Virus genome (UHGV): UHGV-1378242
Source: a virus
DNA length: 23,616 nt
Strand: one strand, 5' to 3'
The notes under the pieces: generated by a model
Told to the model about the DNA's origin: nothing
Seen by the model: only the letters and a program-made list of their open reading frames with translations
Databases searched by the model: none
Shown: positions 1,202 to 23,616 of the stretch, piece by piece
Layout of the letters: the number at the start of each line of letters is the position of its first letter
How positions within the stretch are numbered: position 1 is the stretch's first letter
Program-made: the position numbers and the translations under genes

Positions 1202-2673
1202 CAGATACAGCGTTATCTCCTGAAGAGCAGTTAATCGAGGATATTGCAGGGTTCACTCACGATCCGCTTGGCTATGCCCTCTATGCGTTCCCGTGGGGGG
1301 AAGAGGGGACTGAACTGGCACATGCCACCGGCCCACGTCAGTGGCAGGCTGATGCGTTCCGAGAGATACGTGATCACCTGCAGAATCCAGAGACGCGCTA
1401 TCAGCCGCTTATGCTGGCACGCGCTTCTGGTCACGGTATTGGTAAATCCGCATTCATCTCAATGCTGATCAACTGGGGCATGTCCACTTGCGAGGATTGT
1501 AAGGTCGTGGTGACCGCCAACACCGACAACCAGCTACGAACGAAGACCTGGCCGGAAATTATCAAGTGGTCGAACCTTGCTATCACGAAAGACTGGTTTA
1601 CCTGTACCGCTACCGCGATGTACAGCAATGACCTAGGGCACGACAAGCGGTGGCGGGCTGACGCAATACCCTGGTCTGAGCACAACACCGAGGCATTCGC
1701 CGGACTACACAACGAGCGCAAACGCATCATCGTGGTATTCGATGAAGCGTCGAACATTGCGGATCTGGTGTGGGAAGTTGCTGAGGGTGCGCTTACGGAC
1801 GAAGACACGGAAATTATCTGGGTGGCGTTTGGGAACCCGACGCGTAACACCGGGCGCTTCCGCGAATGCTTCCGCAAGTACAAGCACCGCTGGAAGTGCG
1901 CGCAGATTGACAGCCGCACCGTGGAAGGCACAAACAAGCAGCAGCTGCAGAAATGGGTTGACGACTACGGCGAAGACAGCGACTTCGTGAAGGTCCGCGT
2001 GCGGGGGATCTTCCCTGACGCGTCAGAACTCCAGTTTATCCCAACAGGCCTTACAGACGAGGCCATGAAGCGGGTGGTTACCGCTGCGCAGGTTGCACAT
2101 GCTCCGGTGATAATCGGTGTTGACCCGGCATATTCAGGCGTTGATGACGCGGTGATATACCTGCGGCAGGGGCTACACAGTAAGGTGCTGTGGACTGGCA
2201 ACAAGACTACCGACGATCTGATTATGGCGAAGCGTATCGCTGACTTTGAAGACCAGTATCAGGCTGACGCGGTGTTCATCGACTTCGGTTACGGAACCGG
2301 TTTGAAGTCAATCGGTGATGGCTGGGGACGTACATGGCAACTTGTTCCGTTCGGTGGCGCGTCTACTGACCCGCAGATGCTCAACAAGCGTGGGGAGATG
2401 TTCAACTCATGCAAGACATGGCTGAGGCTCGGCGGCATGCTGGATGACCAGGAAACTGCAGACGACCTGTCGGCGGCAGAGTACAAAGTTCGTGTGGACG
2501 GTAAAATCGTTATCGAACCGAAGGAAGATATCAAGGAGCGGCTTGGGCGTTCGCCGGGTAAAGGCGATGCGCTACTGCTGACGTTTGCGTTCCCTGTGTC
2601 TAAGCGTCTGCGAATTCCCGGGCAGCAGAACCAGCAAGGCAAGGCCATTACAGATTATGATCCCTATGCTTAA
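1198..2673 (+). CDS. terL: Terminase large subunit (ATPase/nuclease)
   Basis: 491 aa. Walker A-like ARASGHGIGKS, Walker B-like IIVVFDEAS, and nuclease-domain acidic motif IIGVDPAYSGVDD. GTG start overlaps the terS stop (GTGA). Confidence 0.9.
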   Translation: MTDTALSPEEQLIEDIAGFTHDPLGYALYAFPWGEEGTELAHATGPRQWQADAFREIRDHLQNPETRYQPLMLARASGHGIGKSAFISMLINWGMSTCEDCKVVVTANTDNQLRTKTWPEIIKWSNLAITKDWFTCTATAMYSNDLGHDKRWRADAIPWSEHNTEAFAGLHNERKRIIVVFDEASNIADLVWEVAEGALTDEDTEIIWVAFGNPTRNTGRFRECFRKYKHRWKCAQIDSRTVEGTNKQQLQKWVDDYGEDSDFVKVRVRGIFPDASELQFIPTGLTDEAMKRVVTAAQVAHAPVIIGVDPAYSGVDDAVIYLRQGLHSKVLWTGNKTTDDLIMAKRIADFEDQYQADAVFIDFGYGTGLKSIGDGWGRTWQLVPFGGASTDPQMLNKRGEMFNSCKTWLRLGGMLDDQETADDLSAAEYKVRVDGKIVIEPKEDIKERLGRSPGKGDALLLTFAFPVSKRLRIPGQQNQQGKAITDYDPYA

Positions 2674-2723
2674 TCCGTTAGCGGGGATAATGACGGAGAT
2701 ATCCTCTGGTGAGGATAAAACAA

Positions 2724-2743
2724 AGCCAGCTCATCGGCTGGCT
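2724..2743. terminator. Intrinsic terminator hairpin, likely bidirectional and more convincing for the minus strand
   Basis: AGCCAGC (2724-2730), loop TCATCG, GCTGGCT (2737-2743). On the minus strand it is followed by TTGTTTTAT; on the plus strand by GTTTGTG. It lies between the convergent terL and the 123-aa minus ORF. A second hairpin ATCCTC-TGGT-GAGGAT is at 2701-2716. Confidence 0.5.
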
Positions 2744-2747
2744 GTTT

Positions 2748-2759
2748 GTGACATGTCAC
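2748..2759. repeat. Copy 2 of GTGACATGTCAC
   Basis: Exact 12-mer, 4 bp past the terminator hairpin and 5 bp from the end of the minus-strand ORF 2764..3135. Confidence 0.6.
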
Positions 2760-2763
2760 GGTG

Positions 2764-3135
2764 TTATTGCTCGCTTAACTTCTGCTTCAGCAAGTAACCT
2801 TCAAGCATCCAGATTTTGTTTACAGCATTCTGCCGGGCAATCTTCCGACCAATTTCCGCATCAAAGTTTTCCGGGCTTGCACAGGCGCTCTCTCCGGTGA
2901 CGGTGAAGCCGTTGCGCAGCACCAGGACGCAGAACGTCAGCAGAGAAAGTGATTCGTGCGGCTGGTAGTTTACCTCTCCGCCAGTATGTTTCGCTTTTAT
3001 GGCTACGCCAAAGGCACCATCTTCTGCTGTGAAATATGCCTCCTGAGCAATAATGCTCTCGATATGGTCTGGCGTAACGCGCGGCGCGGCTAAACCTTTA
3101 GCCTGAATTTCAGATTCAATGTCTTTGTCACTCAT
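2764..3135 (-). CDS. Hypothetical protein (123 aa), minus-strand moron between terL and portal
   Basis: ATG at 3135 with AAGGTGAG upstream. Opposite orientation to the flanking late genes and downstream of the tRNA on the same strand. Terminator hairpin just past its stop. Family not recognised. Confidence 0.6.
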   Translation of the reverse strand: MSDKDIESEIQAKGLAAPRVTPDHIESIIAQEAYFTAEDGAFGVAIKAKHTGGEVNYQPHESLSLLTFCVLVLRNGFTVTGESACASPENFDAEIGRKIARQNAVNKIWMLEGYLLKQKLSEQ

Positions 3136-3329
3136 AGTCTAATCTCACCTTAAAAAAATGCCCGGCGAACCGGAAGCAATGAGTTATGCCTTCCGTGGCT
3201 GTACTGGTTTACAGCATGAAGTCATCGCAATGGCGTCCTGCTGTAAAAAGGGCGGTGATAGTCCTTCAAGGGAAACCATCACCGCCAAGCACCTGGAACT
3301 TCTGGCATCACGGTCCTTAGGCGTGATTC

Positions 3330-3406
3330 TGGCGTGGCATGCAGGATTCGAACCTGCGACCAACCGCTTAGAAGGCGGTTGCTCTGTCCAACTGAGCTAA
3401 TGCCAC
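3330..3406 (-). tRNA. tRNA-Arg (anticodon UCU, reads AGA), phage-borne argU-like
   Basis: Minus-strand 77 nt: GTGGCAT-TA-GCTC-AGTTGG-AC-AGAGC-A-ACCGC-CTTCTAA-GCGGT-TGGTC-GCAGG-TTCGAAT-CCTGC-ATGCCAC-G-CCA. Perfect 7-bp acceptor stem, D-loop, T-loop GGTTCGAATCC, anticodon loop CU-UCU-AA and encoded CCA. It resembles E. coli argU as I recall it, with compensatory stem changes. Confidence 0.9.
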
Positions 3407-3728: not shown

Positions 3729-3744
3729 TTACCTGAAAGGTAAT
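3729..3744. promoter_or_regulatory. Operator-like inverted repeat TTACC-TGAAA-GGTAA (16-mer TTACCTGAAAGGTAAT)
   Basis: The same 16-mer recurs at 22646-22661. It sits in the 430-bp non-coding region between the tRNA and the portal operon, next to palindrome GGTTAGTAACC (3702-3712) and direct repeat GGTAATAATTT (3739-3749, 3801-3811). Confidence 0.45.
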
Positions 3745-19779: not shown

Positions 19780-20076
19780 ATGCAAGCGATAGGATTCATT
19801 GTTTATATCGTCGTTGGCCTTTTTCAGTTGGCAGCAATTATGGCTGGGCTTGAATCATGGTGGGGATTGCACTGGATAATTGCAGCCCCCATTGCTTTCA
19901 TCGTGAGCTATATTCCATTTGTTGGAGCGATTGTTGGTATGGTTGGTGCTGTGGATGTATGGCGGTGGGAGTGGTGGCAGGCTGGCCTTCTCTTCTTTGG
20001 TGGGATCATCTTTGCTATTGTCTGCGGTGGAATGTCATCATTTTTCGAACGGCTATCATTCAGAAAAGGAACGTGA
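19780..20076 (+). CDS. Small integral membrane protein (98 aa, about three TM segments, charged C-terminus), holin-like topology
   Basis: ATG with AGGTGA upstream. Very hydrophobic and Trp-rich. Last gene before the operon terminator. Stop TGA lies inside palindrome copy 3. Confidence 0.55.
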   Translation: MQAIGFIVYIVVGLFQLAAIMAGLESWWGLHWIIAAPIAFIVSYIPFVGAIVGMVGAVDVWRWEWWQAGLLFFGGIIFAIVCGGMSSFFERLSFRKGT

Positions 20077-20340: not shown

Positions 20341-20362
20341 CAAAAAAGCCCGCAGCGCGGGC
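20341..20362 (-). terminator. Rho-independent terminator for the minus-strand operon
   Basis: On the minus strand: stop TAA, then GCCCGC-GCT-GCGGGC, then TTTTTTG. Confidence 0.7.
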
Positions 20363-20911
20363 TTACTTTTCTTCAGGTTTGTTGTCTTCAGATTTCTTCT
20401 TGATGCTTGGTTTTTGTCTAAGAACGAAAATACCAGCCACTGCAACAACTGTACCGATCACTGTGCCAGCTAGAACTTCATGACCTGTTAAACCTAATAA
20501 TGTTGCACAAGCTACTGTAAAAATAGTTGCACTCAGGCCAAACCACTGCCCACGTTTATCTCTATTAATAGCCCCGTCAAGTGCCTTTTCCTCCATTTTC
20601 TGGCGGTGAGCAAACTCCTTCTCCGTCAGCTGGAAGATGCGTTCGGGGGCATCAGGTAAAATATCCTGATACCCGCGAAGCAGATAGGGGGGAGGAAGCG
20701 GACCCTGAAACGCATGGTGAGCGACAACTATCTCCTGAATTTCAGGGCGATCAAGAACTCTTGTGAAGGCATCTGGGTGTTGAATGATCTCGTTACTTAG
20801 CCCTTCCTCAACTTCCTCGAACTCAGTTTCTTCGTTATCACTTGGTTGCCCAATAGATTTTTGCATATTTGTCGAAGGACATTCCTTTAGCTTCTGGTTT
20901 TCCTCTTGCAT
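20363..20911 (-). CDS. Membrane protein (182 aa): acidic soluble N-terminal domain and two C-terminal TM helices; function unknown
   Basis: TM segments WFGLSATIFTVACATLLGL and VLAGTVIGTVVAVAGIFVL, then a Lys-rich tail. Its 5' end overlaps the upstream 108-aa gene out of frame by 74 nt, or 29 nt if Met16 at 20866 is the start. Confidence 0.6.
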   Translation of the reverse strand: MQEENQKLKECPSTNMQKSIGQPSDNEETEFEEVEEGLSNEIIQHPDAFTRVLDRPEIQEIVVAHHAFQGPLPPPYLLRGYQDILPDAPERIFQLTEKEFAHRQKMEEKALDGAINRDKRGQWFGLSATIFTVACATLLGLTGHEVLAGTVIGTVVAVAGIFVLRQKPSIKKKSEDNKPEEK

Positions 20912-21164
20912 TTGAGTTTTTCCCTGTCACTATTGCCCATTTTCCGCCAGCAGGCGCTGCAATTTTTTTTCCGTTCTTTACTATATATTCAGCATAAACA
21001 CGATTTTCTGACCGTCTGAGATCGTCTCCGACCATATTCATGTCTCTTGATATAACTTTGACGACAGAGTCTCGGTTTAAAGCCTTGGCATAGTTGGAGC
21101 CAGGAACGATACCCAAAGGGGTGCCAGACTCTATAGCCAGCTCCTTGACATATCTTCTGCTCAT
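20838..21164 (-). CDS. Hypothetical soluble protein (108 aa), first gene of the minus-strand operon
   Basis: ATG at 21164; the track's TTG start at 21179 is less likely. Basic, Lys/Gly-rich C-terminal half. Operator-like TTACC-N5-GGTAA lies in its leader. Confidence 0.55.
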   Translation of the reverse strand: MSRRYVKELAIESGTPLGIVPGSNYAKALNRDSVVKVISRDMNMVGDDLRRSENRVYAEYIVKNGKKIAAPAGGKWAIVTGKNSNARGKPEAKGMSFDKYAKIYWATK

Positions 21165-21185
21165 ATGAACCTCAACCAATCGACT

Positions 21186-21200
21186 TTACCAATCGGGTAA
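21186..21200. promoter_or_regulatory. Operator-like inverted repeat TTACC-AATCG-GGTAA
   Basis: Same arms as the 16-mer at 3729 and 22646. Sits 20-35 bp upstream of the 108-aa gene start. A TATAAT-like hexamer is at 21214-21219. Confidence 0.4.
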
Positions 21201-21242
21201 TTTTAAACATGAGTATAATGCTTTTAACTGCAACGAGTGTAA

Positions 21243-21277
21243 ACAATTATTGATAATTGTAGGCACATCCATGTGCC
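21243..21277. promoter_or_regulatory. Two adjacent palindromes, ACAATTAT-TG-ATAATTGT and GGCACAT-CC-ATGTGCC
   Basis: Both are perfect inverted repeats, located between the Bro-N gene stop (21286) and the promoter region of the 108-aa operon. Candidate operator and/or weak terminator. Confidence 0.35.
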
Positions 21278-21285
21278 GCCGCTCG

Positions 21286-21996
21286 TCAGAAGAACCCTGC
21301 CTTGTCGTTGATGTACTCCGCGTGGGTCTGGATATCACGCAGGCATTTGCTCACACCGACGATGTAGCAGAACATGGTGGTCAGCTCCGCCGCCGCGCCC
21401 GATACGTCATGCCCGTCTTCCTGTAACTGGTTCAGCAAATTCATCAGCAGTGAGTTCTCCGTCAGGCCGAGAACACCCGACGGCGAGTGAATCAAACTGC
21501 GGTAGCCGGGCTTCAGCGGGGCGCTGTAGGTTTTGTTCTCTATCTTCATCGCCTGCATTACTGCTGATGCTGTGGCGTTGGCTACCTGGTCGGCAACCAT
21601 CTTTATGCGTTCTTCCTGCGGGAGCGAGTTTTTAATGTAGCTTCCGGTGCGGCGGATCTGAGGAAGAACCTCACCTGTAACCCATTTACGAAAGCGGTAG
21701 GGGATAGTGCCTGGTGTCACTGCGTCGCGGCAGCGGAGGATCAGTGTGTAGAGGCCTGACTCGGAGATAATGTTGATCTCTTTTACTCGGCTGTCAAAAA
21801 TTGCACGATGTTCATGCCCTATGTTGAACATAGACCTTTCATCATCATCCAGTTTTTCAAGTGCTTGGGTGACGTTTTGGATACGCAGCGCACTACAAAC
21901 GTCTTGGGCTACAAACCATGGTTGGCCATCGATAATGATGGAACGGATAGGGTTAACAGATTCAAATTTGAAGATGGCAGTTTGAGCATTAGCCAT
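21286..21996 (-). CDS. Bro-N family antirepressor-like protein
   Basis: N-terminal FKFESVNPIRSIIIDGQPWFVAQDVCSALRI… fits the Bro-N pattern. Start taken at ATG 21996 (GGAG 9 nt upstream) rather than GTG 22011. The C-terminal ~65 aa are homologous to the 85-aa protein at 22312..22569. Confidence 0.8.
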   Translation of the reverse strand: MANAQTAIFKFESVNPIRSIIIDGQPWFVAQDVCSALRIQNVTQALEKLDDDERSMFNIGHEHRAIFDSRVKEINIISESGLYTLILRCRDAVTPGTIPYRFRKWVTGEVLPQIRRTGSYIKNSLPQEERIKMVADQVANATASAVMQAMKIENKTYSAPLKPGYRSLIHSPSGVLGLTENSLLMNLLNQLQEDGHDVSGAAAELTTMFCYIVGVSKCLRDIQTHAEYINDKAGFF

Positions 21997-22014
21997 GGTG
22001 GTTATCTCCACTTA

Positions 22015-22028
22015 GTGATTTTAATCAC
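22015..22028. promoter_or_regulatory. Palindrome GTGATT-TT-AATCAC over the putative -10 of the Bro-N gene
   Basis: Perfect 14-bp inverted repeat 19 bp upstream of the Bro-N ATG. The minus-strand TAAAAT hexamer lies inside it. Its GTGA-N6-TCAC core loosely resembles a CRP-type site. Confidence 0.35.
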
Positions 22029-22142
22029 CACCGCAACGCCAATTACTGGTGGTGAACTGGACAAGGTTGGCGTACCGGCCTAAGTGGTACCGGCGTCCTT
22101 TCGGACCCCTGCCCAGCCCACCATAATTCGGATATAGCTGTG

Positions 22143-22164
22143 CTTAACGCATAAAAAAACCACG
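22143..22164 (-). terminator. Candidate intrinsic terminator after the 85-aa gene
   Basis: Minus strand: CCACG-CCAGA-CGTGG followed by TTTTTTT. The stem is short (5 bp). Further hairpins lie upstream at 22181-22225. Confidence 0.4.
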
Positions 22165-22263
22165 TCTGGCGTGGTATGCGCCACTTAGTAACCCGGGACG
22201 CCAATCCCGGCACTGGATTTTGCCAGTGCCCGATTACTATGGCACAAGAGGAGTGCGATGTAA

Positions 22264-22282
22264 ATTTACCGCAAAGGTAAAT
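22264..22282. promoter_or_regulatory. Inverted repeat ATTTACC-GCAAA-GGTAAAT nested in a longer hairpin
   Basis: Variant of the TTACC-N5-GGTAA motif, bracketed by the 8-bp inverted repeat AGGAGTGC…GCACTCCT (about 22244-22292). Confidence 0.4.
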
Positions 22283-22311
22283 ATAAGCACTCCTATTGGT
22301 AATTTCAAATC

Positions 22312-22569
22312 TTATCTGGTTTGTTTTCGTAATTGTTCGGCACAATAGTCGAGATGTGTTTGCAGATCCTGCATAGACATCTGTGAGCTGGTGACGTAGT
22401 TAATCAGTGCAGTCAGTTCGGCAAGTGGGCCATCGACATTAAATCCATCCTTATCGAGATCCCGGAGTAATTTCATCAAGTGCGATCCCTCCACCAGTGA
22501 CCTGACGCCTCCCGGCGTGTGAATCCTTTCGGTAAATCCGTCTTCCAGTGGATAGTGATACTGCTGCAT
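22312..22569 (-). CDS. Small LexA-controlled protein (85 aa), antirepressor-like, paralogous to the C-terminal domain of the Bro-N protein
   Basis: ATG 22569 with GGAGAA upstream; the track ORF is N-terminally over-extended. Aligns with the Bro-N C-terminus on IH-P-GV, LM-LL, AELT and QTH-Y. A LexA box lies 20-40 bp upstream. Confidence 0.6.
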   Translation of the reverse strand: MQQYHYPLEDGFTERIHTPGGVRSLVEGSHLMKLLRDLDKDGFNVDGPLAELTALINYVTSSQMSMQDLQTHLDYCAEQLRKQTR

Positions 22570-22588
22570 CTTATCTTCTCCATGCAAT

Positions 22589-22608
22589 AACTGTATATTT
22601 ATACAGTA
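22589..22608. promoter_or_regulatory. LexA (SOS) box
   Basis: AACTGTATATTTATACAGTA matches the consensus TACTGTATATATATACAGTA at 18 of 20 positions, with perfect CTGT-N8-ACAG. Positioned over the putative promoter of the minus-strand 85-aa gene, in the divergent region shared with the tailspike gene. Confidence 0.7.
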
Positions 22609-22644
22609 GCAAATAATTTGTTTGCTATCCAGCACGTTTTGCAA

Positions 22645-22661
22645 ATTACCTGAAAGGTAAT
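22645..22661. promoter_or_regulatory. Operator-like inverted repeat ATTACC-TGAAA-GGTAAT
   Basis: Contains the 16-mer TTACCTGAAAGGTAAT identical to 3729-3744. About 40 bp upstream of the LexA box. A half-site-like CAGGTAAT follows at about 22706-22713. Confidence 0.45.
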
Positions 22662-22764
22662 ATCTATTCGTATTTACAGTCTTTCTATCCATATGTGGTT
22701 TTTCAGGTAATAGAATAACCAGATATGCGGCGCAACGGGTGCTGCGACTATCTGGAGATTTAAC

Positions 22765-23616
22765 ATGACGGTCTCAACCGAAGTTGACCACAACGAATAC
22801 ACCGGTAACGGCGTTACGACATCGTTTCCGTATACTTTTCGAATTTTCAGAAAATCAGACCTGGTTGTTCAGGTGTCTGACCTGAACGGGAACGTAACAG
22901 AATTGGTTCTGGATACCGGTTATACGGTAACTGGGGCGGGCACTTATAGTGGCGGTTCTGTGGTTCTTCCGTCTCCGCTTGCTACTGGATGGCGAATTAC
23001 GATAGATCGTGTGCTTGATGTAGTGCAGGAGACAGACCTTCGCAATCAGGGAAAATTTTTCCCCGAAGTGCATGAAGATGCCTTTGACTACCTGACGATG
23101 CTGATCCAGCAATGTTTTGGGTGGTTCAGACGTGCATTGATGAAACCATCTTTGCTTGCAAAATATTACGATGCAAAGCAAAACAAAATTTCTAACCTTG
23201 CAGATCCATCATTTGAGCAGGACGCTGTAAATAATCGCTCAATGCGTAATTATGTCGATGCTGCAATCGCCGGGGTTGTTGGTGGTTTTGGTTGGTTTAT
23301 TCAGTATGGTTCTGGGGCTGTGTACCGAACGTTCCAGGATAAAATGCGTGATGCTATTAGCCCCAAAGATTTTGGAGCTGTTGGTGATGGTATAAATGAC
23401 GATTCCACTGCAATAAGCGCGTGCCTTGAAGCCTCATCTCCAGGTTATAAAATTGACGGATTAGGGCTTACTTTTAAAGTATCAACTCTTCCGGATGTCA
23501 GTCGATTTAAAAATGCTCGTTTTTTATTTGAGAGAATACCGGGCCAGCCTCTTTTTTATGCTTCTGAAGATTTTATCCAGGGAGAGTTATTTAAAATTAC
23601 AGATACACCGTGGTAC
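22765..23616 (+). CDS. Tailspike / tail fibre with predicted pectate-lyase-like beta-helix (probable polysaccharide depolymerase); 3' end outside the window
   Basis: ATG 22765 with GGAG 7 nt upstream; open to the window end, so not in the ORF track. N-terminus MTVSTEVDHNEYTGNGVTTSFPYTFRIF… looks like a podovirus particle-binding domain. KDFGAVGDGINDDSTAI is the hallmark start of a pectate-lyase-type beta-helix. Confidence 0.8.
   Translation, partial: MTVSTEVDHNEYTGNGVTTSFPYTFRIFRKSDLVVQVSDLNGNVTELVLDTGYTVTGAGTYSGGSVVLPSPLATGWRITIDRVLDVVQETDLRNQGKFFPEVHEDAFDYLTMLIQQCFGWFRRALMKPSLLAKYYDAKQNKISNLADPSFEQDAVNNRSMRNYVDAAIAGVVGGFGWFIQYGSGAVYRTFQDKMRDAISPKDFGAVGDGINDDSTAISACLEASSPGYKIDGLGLTFKVSTLPDVSRFKNARFLFERIPGQPLFYASEDFIQGELFKITDTPWY

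Follow-up and report, generated by a model that had tools for sequence, protein, structure and literature searches.

Background

Tum of coliphage 186 and GfoA/GftA of the Gifsy prophages are small LexA-repressed proteins that bind non-cleavable repressors (PMC3121763). Reviews describe Ant, the antirepressor of Salmonella phage SPC32H, as being under LexA control with Rep as its target (PMC7380047), as tetrameric and able to take the Rep tetramer apart (PMC9638917), and as being bound through the CAD domain (PMC9986798). For phage P1, ant is described as being under both C1 repression and C4 control (PMC8198154), and the C1 operators as dispersed (PMC8546580). In Gifsy-1 of Salmonella the IsrK RNA has been shown to switch translation on, the regulation of the locus having been tested experimentally (Hershko-Shalev et al. 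2016, PMC4825925). As Gifsy-1 also carries, beside the isrK locus, a separate LexA-controlled small antirepressor, GfoA (PMC3121763), a design with two routes has a precedent.

Here we describe a locus in a stretch of viral DNA of 23,616 nucleotides (UHGV virus genome UHGV-1378242, hereinafter the window), the late part of an E. coli prophage that belongs to the Uetakevirus genus (epsilon15/phiV10/SPC32H-like). The locus comprises a small gene, ant, and a neighbor encoding a Bro-N protein, Bro-N-AntC; the presence of these two antirepressors under different gates is real, with the antirepressor role of Bro-N-AntC being a function that we infer. In our favored reading, which we consider fairly probable, they constitute adjacent, co-oriented antirepressor modules, namely a LexA-gated ant and an immI-type, RNA-gated Bro-N-AntC, both acting against a non-cleavable Rep. 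Judged by homology, the design is that of SPC32H Ant joined with a P1 immI or Gifsy-1 isrK-type module (Table 1). The first module can be taken as established by orthology and the RNA part of the second, as far as sequence comparison goes, by homology and covariation.

The region is present in about 10% of complete E. coli genomes, and the prophage of E. coli SF-468 is 100% identical to the window across the entire locus. RefSeq calls the small gene product a 'hypothetical protein', and RNA genes are absent from the features under the match. Some prophages of this family carry K1-capsule endosialidase tailspikes or O-antigen-modifying genes.

Table 1. Features of the two-gene antirepressor locus, in window coordinates
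Feature	Position	Strand	Basis or remark
Rep-operator-like palindrome TTACCTGAAAGGTAA	22646..22660	.	Divergent ant/tailspike intergenic region
LexA (SOS) box AACTGTATATTTATACAGTA	22589..22608	-	19 nt upstream of ant ATG
ant, 85-aa free-standing antirepressor, SPC32H Ant ortholog	22312..22569	-	tblastn, PDB 5D50, PHROG
Upstream promoter-like site TTGAAA-17-TATATT (10/12)	22280..22308	-	Consensus scan; putative function
Rep-operator-like palindrome TTACCGCAAAGGTAA	22266..22280	.	Overlaps -10/+1 of upstream promoter
IsrK-type promoter, predicted	22236..22264	-	-35 TTTACA 22259-22264; -10 CATAGT with TG 22236-22241
a1b1/IsrK-like leader RNA	22153..22242	-	Rfam isrK; terminator scan
b1 UUGGCGU	22198-22204	-	a1b1 leader
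a1 CUAAGUGG	22181-22188	-	a1b1 leader
Intrinsic terminator of a1b1 leader	stem 22159-22175 + U run	-	Terminator scan
C4-type antisense RNA	22045..22128	-	Rfam C4
a' CCACUUAG, C4 hairpin-2 loop	22080-22087	-	Complementary to a1/a2
b' ACGCCAA of C4	22067-22073	-	Complementary to b1/b2
C4 target in Bro-N leader	22006..22042	-	Complementarity and covariation
b2 UUGGCGU	22036-22042	-	Bro-N leader
Palindrome GTGATTTTAATCAC	22015-22028	.	Leader RNA between b2 and a2; no conserved operator
a2 CUAAGUGG	22008-22015	-	Bro-N leader; overlaps Shine-Dalgarno
Bro-N-AntC fusion antirepressor, 236 aa from ATG	21286..21996	-	Pfam, PHROG, PDB 5D50_E
Bro-N domain of fusion	21661-21948	-	Pfam Bro-N (PF02498), aa 17-112, E 9.6e-20
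Ant-like C-terminal domain of fusion	21304-21534	-	PDB 5D50_E, E 1.2e-13, aa 155-231

The small gene and its LexA box

The product of the small gene shows full-length homology to SPC32H Ant (PDB 5D50 chain E, 'Anti-repressor protein', E = 4e-47), with 88% identity between the two in tblastn, and matches phrog_450 with E = 9e-48. A longer ORF of 126 aa, starting at 22692, represents an in-frame upstream extension and was rejected for the 85-aa form, because the crystallised protein has 86 aa and the GGAG-ATG context is conserved.

The upstream element AACTGTATATTTATACAGTA agrees with the LexA consensus TACTGTATATATATACAGTA at 18 of 20 positions. The loose form of the LexA pattern shows no enrichment in the window (8 matches against 8.6 expected), and perfect CTGT-N8-ACAG occurs three times, the element upstream of ant being the only one with an all-A/T spacer. 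As the pattern count alone is insufficient, the box owes its significance to the unvarying distance from the start codon at which SPC32H, phiV10 and five of the eight enterobacterial loci keep it, measured in those five as a constant offset of -45 between the box and the start of the ant tblastn match. The box of the window aligns with that of SPC32H and occupies the position mutated in the SPC32N variant: the difference between SPC32H and SPC32N at record position 19960 alters the CAG of the SPC32H box. A scan for consensus sigma-70 promoters gave no match at the box; it presumably overlaps the ant promoter, an arrangement reportedly described by Kim and Ryu 2013.

The initial annotation had proposed a near-consensus LexA box upstream of the 85-aa gene and a LexA-controlled antirepressor as its product. 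The first proposal holds, and the second is supported by orthology to a characterised protein and by the placement of the box as in SPC32H, so that the gene product can be described as a probable LexA-gated antirepressor. This half of the locus, ant with its box, is already known from SPC32H.

A Bro-N protein with an Ant-like domain

In the list of open reading frames the Bro-N ORF is extended to a GTG at 22011. The protein read from the ATG matches several 'anti-repressor' families of PHROG, among them phrog_130 'anti-repressor Ant' (E = 8e-57), and it also matches phrog_450 (E = 4e-36), which is the family recovered with Ant. Direct comparison by BLASTP aligns Ant with the Bro-N protein without gaps over 74 aa at 42% identity (E = 9e-16), and the shared homology, at about 77 aa, takes in essentially all of Ant; the earlier observation that the small protein is homologous to the C-terminus of the Bro-N protein is hence correct in substance, its estimate of about 65 aa being too short. 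Identity between the two Ant-like domains lies at 37-42%, with 19 positions invariant across both subfamilies. The match to 5D50 already settles the homology of both domains at the sequence level, and we regard AntC as a paralogous copy of the Ant domain. BLASTP and the 5D50 matches thus agree with the earlier suggestion of an effector domain duplicated into a free-standing and a Bro-N-fused copy, and the presence of an Ant-like domain in both proteins is the modestly new point here. Neither Pfam nor NCBIfam holds a model of the Ant domain; a match to DUF724 (17.6 bits against a cut-off of 38.4) was discarded as noise.

The AntC domain is found in every Bro-N protein of such cassettes, Nitrosomonas included. 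At an identity of only about 40% between the two Ant-like domains, it is possible that the fusion recognizes another repressor or no repressor at all. Given that Ant acts as a tetramer (PMC9638917), AntC might alternatively co-assemble with free Ant and tune it, poison it or tether it to DNA through the Bro-N domain, with no action of its own on Rep. The location of the two genes side by side and the full-length homology of the domain common to their products would accord with such modulation, but Nitrosomonas possesses a C4-Bro-N-AntC cassette with no free ant seen within the 6.2 kb examined, and PHROG families with such fusions are annotated as antirepressors, making this a very unlikely role.

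The antisense RNA cassette

The evidence from sequence and predicted structure shows the Bro-N gene to be placed under a P1/P7 immI-type antisense RNA cassette, which is homologous to the Gifsy-1 isrK locus. The leader scores 67.7 bits with the Rfam isrK model (RF01394; gathering cut-off 50) and 44.1 bits with c4-a1b1, just under the cut-off of 46.7, whereas the C4 RNA reaches 66 bits (RF01695; gathering cut-off 45), folds with a z-score of -5.0 and shows compensatory changes in 8 of 26 consensus pairs. Matches above the gathering cut-off were obtained with both isrK and C4 for the window and for all relatives carrying the Bro-N gene; in SPC32H the Rfam search found neither. The IsrK-type promoter aligns with the TTGACA/TATATT of Gifsy-1, and its predicted start at about 22229 coincides with position 1 of the isrK model; the upstream promoter-like site is partly conserved in our alignment A2. 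In the enterobacterial loci the cassette always lies downstream of ant and in a Rep-type prophage, directly adjoining ant in most of them and separated from it by an insertion in two.

The a' and b' segments of C4 are exactly complementary, over 8 and 7 nt, to the a1/b1 and the a2/b2 sites alike, and a2 overlaps the Shine-Dalgarno GGAG (22006-22009), which lies 9 nt upstream of the Bro-N ATG. The Bro-N leader is predicted to form a hairpin with the stem GGUGGU/ACCACC (z-score -3.7). Matching copies of both segments (a1/a'/a2 and b1/b'/b2), with some G.U pairs, co-vary in 10 of 10 loci. The a segments come in four alleles among nine enterobacterial loci, and the b segments in three alleles in the same number of loci plus a fourth in Nitrosomonas; in Superficieibacter, b' was read by eye as GUCUCAA, which pairs with UUGAGAC. 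The allele of the window reads AGUGG where that of ZX5 reads AAAGG. A matrix of cognate against non-cognate RNAduplex energies failed to discriminate (-28.7 vs -25.4 kcal/mol) because conserved stems are common to all loci, and the block-complementarity counts substituted for it gave a similarly noisy cross-matrix; the usable evidence on alleles is therefore the table read from alignments A2 and A4.

The upstream ORF (orf45/icd-like), through which translation is coupled in Gifsy-1 and P1, has just 14 codons in the window and ends inside C4. Among relatives its length ranges from 14 to 47 codons, and in one it continues in frame into the Bro-N ORF. With a uORF of only 14 codons, the activation mechanism of IsrK cannot be carried over unchanged. 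Two annotated or predicted reading frames were set aside: a 100-aa ORF at 22043..22345, which overlies the structured RNAs, and the 37-aa CDS 'ash family protein' of ZX5, which is the C4 uORF (35 codons from the first AUG), the length of which is not conserved. The Gifsy-1 'orf45/STnc1160' coincides with the C4 RNA.

The initial annotation had instead proposed that the Bro-N gene is gated by a DNA-binding protein at the palindrome GTGATTTTAATCAC, which would provide a second protein-operator induction input. A 14-bp palindrome directly upstream of the Bro-N start does invite this reading, but an exact GTGATTTTAATCAC occurs only once in the window, matches under relaxed criteria show no enrichment (5, with 2.3 expected), and phiV10, ZX5, TL-2011b, Tyrion and a Klebsiella phage retain just the 5' half, GGTGGTGATTA, and have lost the palindrome. 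The single copy and the unconserved 3' half argue that it is not an operator. It further lies downstream of both candidate promoters, within the transcribed C4-target leader, where the predicted fold uses its bases in the hairpin that presents a2. We accordingly consider an operator at this site highly improbable.

Putative Rep operators and the target of Bro-N-AntC

A second palindrome, TTACC-N5-GGTAA, has a very different distribution. It is found 6 times in the window against 0.33 expected, 14 times in ZX5 (0.53 expected), 18 times in SPC32H (0.48) and 10 times in the early region of the SF-468 prophage (0.27), and in the last three it clusters on both sides of rep. The copy between ant and the tailspike gene (TTACCTGAAAGGTAA) is conserved in SPC32H, phiV10 and all eight enterobacterial loci. 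At the cassette promoters, compared across six phage loci, the half-sites are invariant and the spacer variable. The motif was not found in the cassettes of Gifsy-1 and Nitrosomonas, whose phages have other repressors. This distribution makes TTACC-N5-GGTAA the probable operator of the main repressor Rep. The rep gene itself lies outside the window; in the SF-468 prophage it encodes a protein of 194 aa (WP_000836290.1) related to 5D50_A (E = 4e-42), with only HTH matches in Pfam and no S24 peptidase. In the cassette, TTACCGCAAAGGTAA abuts the -35 element of the IsrK-type promoter with its center near -44, a position compatible with activation as well as repression.

These observations bear on the target of Bro-N-AntC. 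It could hit the repressors of co-resident or superinfected prophages rather than its own Rep; the second module would then be a weapon of anti-immunity comparable to P22 Ant or Fels-1 FsoA and no part of the induction of this prophage. Antirepressors acting in trans on repressors other than their own are known (PMC3121763), and the wide occurrence of the region in E. coli would make encounters between prophages frequent. Consistent with such a role, besides the modest identity of the two Ant-like domains, phages that differ in Bro-N domain and C4 allele have Bro-N-type C-domains of 100% identity, and TL-2011b carries this C-domain on a P22_AR_N protein as well. However, the positions invariant in both subfamilies suggest a shared type of partner, the cassette bears the phage's own operator-like site, and its constant placement downstream of ant in Rep-type prophages likewise speaks for the resident repressor. 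We regard action against foreign repressors alone as unlikely and favor Rep as the target of both proteins.

Proposed mechanism and its implications

In the first module, LexA at its box would repress ant; upon DNA damage the removal of LexA would permit synthesis of Ant, which would bind Rep via the C-terminal tetramerisation (CAD) domain of the latter, break the Rep tetramer and induce the prophage. In the second, transcription from the IsrK-type promoter would yield the leader with a1/b1 and the intrinsic terminator, and read-through past this terminator would yield the C4 antisense RNA together with the Bro-N-AntC mRNA. The a' loop and single-stranded b' of C4 are proposed to pair with a2 and b2 of the Bro-N leader and, since a2 overlaps the Shine-Dalgarno, to block translation of Bro-N-AntC. 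As the a1b1 RNA bears the sequences of the target itself, it could titrate C4 or remodel the leader and so turn translation on. The interchangeable a/b alleles might then act as immunity specificities at the RNA level, as in P1 versus P7, and the putative Rep operator on the cassette promoters would tie the second module to the state of Rep, much as the immI operon of P1 is tied to C1. Under this scheme the second module is not an operator-gated copy of the first but would offer a second, RNA-gated way to inactivate Rep, be it for anti-immunity, for the lysis-lysogeny decision or for reinforcement of induction.

The earlier claim of two separate induction inputs is accordingly plausible in view of the differing controls, but overstated, as the purpose of the second module could be anti-immunity or the lysis-lysogeny decision. 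Nor need the inputs be separate, since read-through may couple the second module to the first. The terminator scan found no terminator between the ant stop (22312) and the a1b1 leader, and with ant upstream of the cassette, SOS-induced ant transcripts could enter a1b1; the a1b1 RNA would then sponge C4 and unlock the translation of Bro-N-AntC. It is conceivable that both modules form one such coupled switch and, more broadly, that the SPC32H-Ant fold is a portable Rep-binding module, although we hold this extended proposal to be quite unlikely. Were the modules coupled, the small and fast Ant would be triggered via LexA, and induction would become irreversible through a second, RNA-latched antirepressor sharing the Rep-binding domain of Ant. 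Were the fold portable, it would be found fused to Bro-N, P22_AR_N or AntA heads and placed under LexA, C4 RNA or Arc/sar; all three kinds of control co-occur in TL-2011b.

Under the favored reading of two antirepressor modules directed against Rep, a list of parts becomes a concrete wiring diagram of induction for a common prophage family of E. coli, Salmonella and Klebsiella, in which Ant is gated by LexA as in SPC32H, a C4 antisense cassette of the P1/Gifsy type forms the second element, and the Ant domain is used again in a Bro-N protein. It links three systems that were studied separately and identifies natural a/b alleles as candidate RNA immunity specificities, while leaving the known principles of prophage control unchanged.

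Comparison with known systems

The closest system is Ant/Rep of SPC32H (PDB 5D50, 5D4Z; Kim and Ryu 2013, J Virol; Kim et al. 2016, PNAS), a phage of the same genus with the highly similar ant in the corresponding genomic slot, flanked by the last virion gene and the tailspike gene, the LexA box at an equal distance from the ant start codon, and a repressor of the same type, combining an HTH with a CAD domain and lacking the S24 peptidase. Unlike the phage described here, SPC32H has neither the Bro-N gene nor the C4/IsrK cassette, and the two Rep proteins are just 42% identical.

The isrK-orf45 (STnc1160)-anrP locus of Gifsy-1 has the three Rfam elements in identical order, with the same promoter position, a terminator after the leader and an antirepressor-like regulated gene. 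It differs in that AnrP is an ORF6N-domain protein, to which BLASTP detected no similarity of Bro-N-AntC (E = 24), and in that its coupling uORF has 45 codons rather than 14. When the complete Gifsy-1 genome was searched with Ant and AntC by tblastn, no match was better than E = 0.48, which suggests that the two Gifsy-1 antirepressors are devoid of the Ant domain; the analogy with Tum and the Gifsy antirepressors drawn in the initial annotation hence applies to function and does not extend to sequence similarity with anything in Gifsy-1.

With the immI operon of P1/P7 (c4-icd-ant1/ant2) the locus shares the C4 RNA fold, the placement of a1/b1 before and a2/b2 after C4, each pair complementary to a'/b', the position of the target over a ribosome-binding site, an antirepressor as the regulated product, and a/b alleles as candidate determinants of specificity. 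A further likeness would be that the main repressor has operators both at the promoter of the operon and dispersed over the genome, the assignment to Rep being our inference. In contrast to P1/P7, the window has no coupled icd-like ORF, C4 would target the ribosome-binding site of the antirepressor itself, an intrinsic terminator separates a1b1 from C4, and the effector combines Bro-N with an SPC32H-Ant-like domain. As gating by LexA and by antisense RNA are both known in other phages, the locus is a clear but fairly ordinary example of the two.

Ant and its LexA box

The product of ant, the 85-aa ORF, is 88% identical (tblastn) to 'ant: anti-repressor protein' of Salmonella phages SPC32H and SPC32N, and aligns with chain E of PDB 5D50 ('Anti-repressor protein') at E 4e-47. 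SPC32H carries its ant in the equivalent slot, with virion genes on one side and the tailspike on the other, and the upstream regions of the two genes can be aligned, with the LexA box (AACTGTATATTTATACAGTA) and the GGAG-ATG context conserved. The initial annotation had correctly recognized this box, which equals the consensus at 18 of 20 positions; the window holds three perfect matches to CTGT-N8-ACAG, and only the one in this box has an A/T-only spacer. The loose LexA pattern by itself is not enriched in the window (8 matches versus 8.6 expected); it is conservation that makes the box significant. These comparisons also favor the earlier proposal that the small gene encodes an SOS-gated antirepressor. 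At record position 19960 the sequences of SPC32H and SPC32N diverge by a C to A change on the ant strand, in the CAG half-site of the LexA box. This fits the finding, reportedly made by Kim and Ryu in 2013, that Ant becomes constitutive when the LexA site carries a point mutation.

LexA self-cleavage is known to result in Ant synthesis and inhibition of the repressor (review, PMC7380047). Tetrameric Ant breaks up the tetramer of Rep, the main repressor (PMC9638917), and the interaction involves the C-terminal CAD/tetramerisation domain of Rep (PMC9986798). The Rep of the Escherichia coli SF-468 prophage (194 aa; E 4e-42 to 5D50 chain A) has HTH domains and lacks an S24 peptidase domain. Given this Rep homolog and the orthology to the SPC32H Ant system, the SOS-gated reading is right but already known: the LexA-gated half is the system characterized in SPC32H. 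The parallels previously drawn with Tum and the Gifsy antirepressors hold only as analogies, because Ant shows no similarity to anything in Gifsy-1.

In the Superficieibacter, Kluyvera and Klebsiella pneumoniae loci the box, ~45 nt 5' of ant, has the form ATGT-N8-ACAG and so lacks the essential C of CTG; the SOS gate may be weaker in these lineages.

A shared, portable Ant domain

The Bro-N protein aligns with the 85-aa protein over 74 residues without gaps (42% identity, E 9e-16). The homology noted in the initial annotation is thus real, but its extent is ~77 aa rather than ~65, essentially the entire small protein. This C-terminal domain (AntC) is present on every Bro-N protein of such cassettes, the phiV10 copy being frameshifted, and 19 invariant positions are common to the free and fused forms. 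The fused-type domain is 100% identical among the window, ZX5 and TL-2011b despite their differing Bro-N domains and C4 alleles, and a partial AntA-domain fusion (P0071) also carries an Ant-type domain. Since the domain recurs both free and behind different N-terminal domains, the Ant fold appears to behave as a portable effector module. The PHROG families phrog_130 and phrog_1760 ('anti-repressor') already cover the AntC region, and the free form is phrog_450, 'unknown function'. We infer that the fused copy binds Rep; at ~40% identity to Ant it could also have a different partner.

In phiV10 (2512-3191) the Bro-N gene is annotated as CDSs of 194 aa and 29 aa; because the frameshift lies within the Ant-like domain, this second antirepressor is probably inactive. 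TL-2011b encodes a third antirepressor (166-1350), a P22_AR_N protein encoded behind an Arc-like repressor and a sar antisense RNA; its C-terminus shares 89% identity with the window Bro-N C-domain.

An antisense RNA cassette upstream of the Bro-N gene

An Rfam scan of the 315 bp between ant and the Bro-N gene gave three matches, all on the minus strand (table). In C4, a' (CCACUUAG) occupies the loop of the second hairpin and b' (ACGCCAA) the neighboring single strand, and exact complements of both occur twice in the same transcript, in the leader (a1, b1) and just 5' of the Bro-N start (a2, b2). The predicted fold of the C4 segment is that of the Rfam model (z-score -5.0); a predicted GGUGGU/ACCACC leader hairpin (z-score -3.7) displays a2 at its apex and leaves the Shine-Dalgarno sequence partly buried.

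Features of the antirepressor region and its surroundings
Feature	Position	Strand	Details
ant	22569..22312	-	85-aa ORF
LexA box	22589-22608		AACTGTATATTTATACAGTA
Bro-N gene	21996..21286	-	236 aa; Pfam Bro-N E 9.6e-20
c4-a1b1 ('a1, b1 targets of C4 antisense RNA')	22242-22190	-	44.1 bits, just under cut-off 46.7
isrK	22229-22153	-	67.7 bits, gathering cut-off 50
C4 antisense RNA	22128-22045	-	66 bits, cut-off 45
Intrinsic terminator	22175-22159	-	stem, followed by seven U; end of isrK match
b1	22198-22204		UUGGCGU; leader
a1	22181-22188		CUAAGUGG; leader
b2	22036-22042		just 5' of Bro-N start
a2	22008-22015		just 5' of Bro-N start; overlaps Shine-Dalgarno GGAG (22006-22009)
Initially proposed operator	22015-22028		GTGATTTTAATCAC
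Hairpin	22244-22300	-	fold z-score -6.7
Upstream promoter-like site	22308-22280		TTGAAA-17-TATATT; -10/+1 overlapped by 22266-22280 palindrome
Second promoter (predicted)	22259-22264; 22236-22241		-35 TTTACA, abutting 22266-22280 palindrome; TG-n-CATAGT
TTACC-N5-GGTAA sites	573-587, 591-605, 3729-3743, 21186-21200, 22266-22280, 22646-22660		one mismatch allowed
tRNA gene	3333-3406	-	Rfam 73.3 bits
108-aa and DUF2335 genes	20363-21179	-	downstream of Bro-N gene
Bidirectional terminator	20346-20364		end of 108-aa/DUF2335 pair
Tailspike start	22767-23616	+

The initial annotation instead placed the Bro-N gene behind an operator, GTGATTTTAATCAC. The palindrome exists, but the window has a single copy, which falls within the transcribed leader between b2 and a2, and five related phages keep only GGTGGTGATTA, the differing 3' half destroying the symmetry. 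The best interpretation of this sequence is a segment of the RNA leader rather than a protein-binding site, and the predicted control of the Bro-N gene is a C4/IsrK-type antisense RNA cassette. Unlike P1 with icd and Gifsy-1 with orf45, the window cassette has no coupled uORF of this type, so that C4 would have to act directly on the ribosome-binding site of the Bro-N antirepressor. An ORF starting in C4 has 14 codons in the window and 14-47 in relatives, and in the Klebsiella phage it continues in frame into the Bro-N ORF.

Both isrK and C4 exceed their gathering cut-offs in phiV10, ZX5, TL-2011b, Enterobacter phage Tyrion and the Klebsiella phage, all five with a Bro-N gene downstream; Rfam detects neither in SPC32H, which also lacks a Bro-N gene. 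An Ant-domain alignment scan of species-representative genomes yielded nine loci. Six of the eight enterobacterial ones have ant, isrK, C4 and Bro-N-AntC in the same order (in K. pneumoniae with an 850-bp insertion between ant and cassette and the Bro-N ORF not directly listed), and two have ant without the cassette. The Nitrosomonas locus has a1b1, isrK, C4 and Bro-N-AntC, and the 6.2 kb examined there showed no free ant.

The a and b specificity sequences co-vary in all three copies. The a1/a'/a2 alleles are CUAAGUGG / CCACUUAG (window, Scandinavium), CUAAAAGG / CCUUUUAG (phiV10, ZX5, TL-2011b, Citrobacter werkmanii, Kluyvera), CUACA(A/G)AGG / CCUUUGUAG (Tyrion, Erwinia, Superficieibacter) and CUAA(A/G)CGG / CCGUUUAG (Klebsiella). 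Those of b1/b'/b2 are UUGGCGU / ACGCCAA, UUGGUCU / AGACCAA, UUGAGAC / GUCUCAA and, in Nitrosomonas, UUGGAAG / CUUCCAA. The a and b alleles are freely combined, and 8 of 26 C4 stem pairs show compensatory changes.

Candidate Rep operators and possible coupling of the two modules

A different palindrome, TTACC-N5-GGTAA (counted with one mismatch allowed), occurs 6 times in the window versus 0.33 expected, 14 versus 0.53 in ZX5, 18 versus 0.48 in SPC32H and 10 versus 0.27 in the SF-468 prophage early region. Its clusters flank rep on both sides in complete relatives, and single copies are found in front of the terminase, integrase, tailspike and other operons. This palindrome is probably the Rep operator, dispersed genome-wide as are the C1 operators of P1 (PMC8546580). 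Across all six phage loci the half-sites of the 22266-22280 copy stay unchanged while its spacer differs. Rep probably also controls the Bro-N gene. The predicted start of the second promoter is position 1 of the isrK model, and this promoter aligns with TTGACA/TATATT of Gifsy-1. At about -44 of this promoter, the candidate operator would suit either repression or activation by Rep. It is absent from the cassettes of Gifsy-1 and Nitrosomonas, which have other repressors. The 22646-22660 copy, which lies between the divergent ant and tailspike genes, is retained at all ant loci and more probably serves the tailspike promoter.

As the stretch from the ant stop codon to the leader contains no detected terminator, SOS-driven read-through from ant into a1b1 is possible. 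This coupling is not obligatory, because insertions separate ant from the C4 cassette in TL-2011b and K. pneumoniae ATCC 13883. The strong hairpin at 22244-22300 lacks a U tract; it may represent either an extended operator or an RNA element with which the ant transcript ends. The operator-like palindrome lies between the arms of its 8-bp GGAGUGC/GCACUCC stem, and these arms appear to have changed together in the Klebsiella phage (AUGGGUU/AACCCAU). The TL-2011b insertion is ~1.1 kb, possibly an IS element.

Phage identity and setting

The window extends from the small terminase subunit to the tailspike start, and the antirepressor genes lie on the minus strand, flanked by the last virion gene and the tailspike. 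By megablast, 21100-22800 is 91-98% identical to Escherichia phages HEMP4, vB_EcoP_ZX5, TL-2011b and phiV10 (genus Uetakevirus), and the antirepressor region is 100% identical in the SF-468 prophage, which adjoins guaA. Matches to the region occur in 534 of 5426 complete E. coli genomes, 209 of them with coverage of at least 80%. The identical prophage's tailspike is annotated as an endosialidase beta-propeller protein, making K1-capsulated E. coli the probable target.

The tRNA gene corresponds in position to tRNA-Arg of SPC32H. Downstream of the Bro-N gene, a Rep-operator-like site precedes genes for a 108-aa protein (phrog_10654, function unknown) and a 182-aa DUF2335 membrane protein (PHROG category 'moron'), which may have a lysogenic-conversion or exclusion role.

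Relationship to known immunity systems

The cassette has the same design as the immI region of P1/P7, namely a C4 RNA, its a/b targets and an antirepressor product; there C4 blocks antirepressor synthesis and C1 also represses the c4-icd-ant operon (PMC8198154, PMC8546580). The Gifsy-1 isrK locus has the same three Rfam elements as the window. Its 'orf45'/STnc1160 region (34131-34329) is a bona fide C4 antisense RNA (69 bits), IsrK overlaps a c4-a1b1 match (48.1 bits), and orf45 is exactly the 45-codon ORF from the 5' AUG of C4. On this basis the published IsrK mechanism can be re-read as an a1b1 RNA acting on C4. In Gifsy-1, AnrP expression results in prophage induction, and IsrK becomes more abundant in stationary phase and at low Mg2+ (PMC4825925); Bro-N-AntC is unrelated to AnrP. 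Overall, the region is a combination of already known system types. What is modestly new is the presence in one phage of two paralogous Ant domains, one under LexA and the other under C4 RNA, the modularity of a domain joined to several different N-terminal domains, and the coincidence of Gifsy-1 orf45/STnc1160 with C4.
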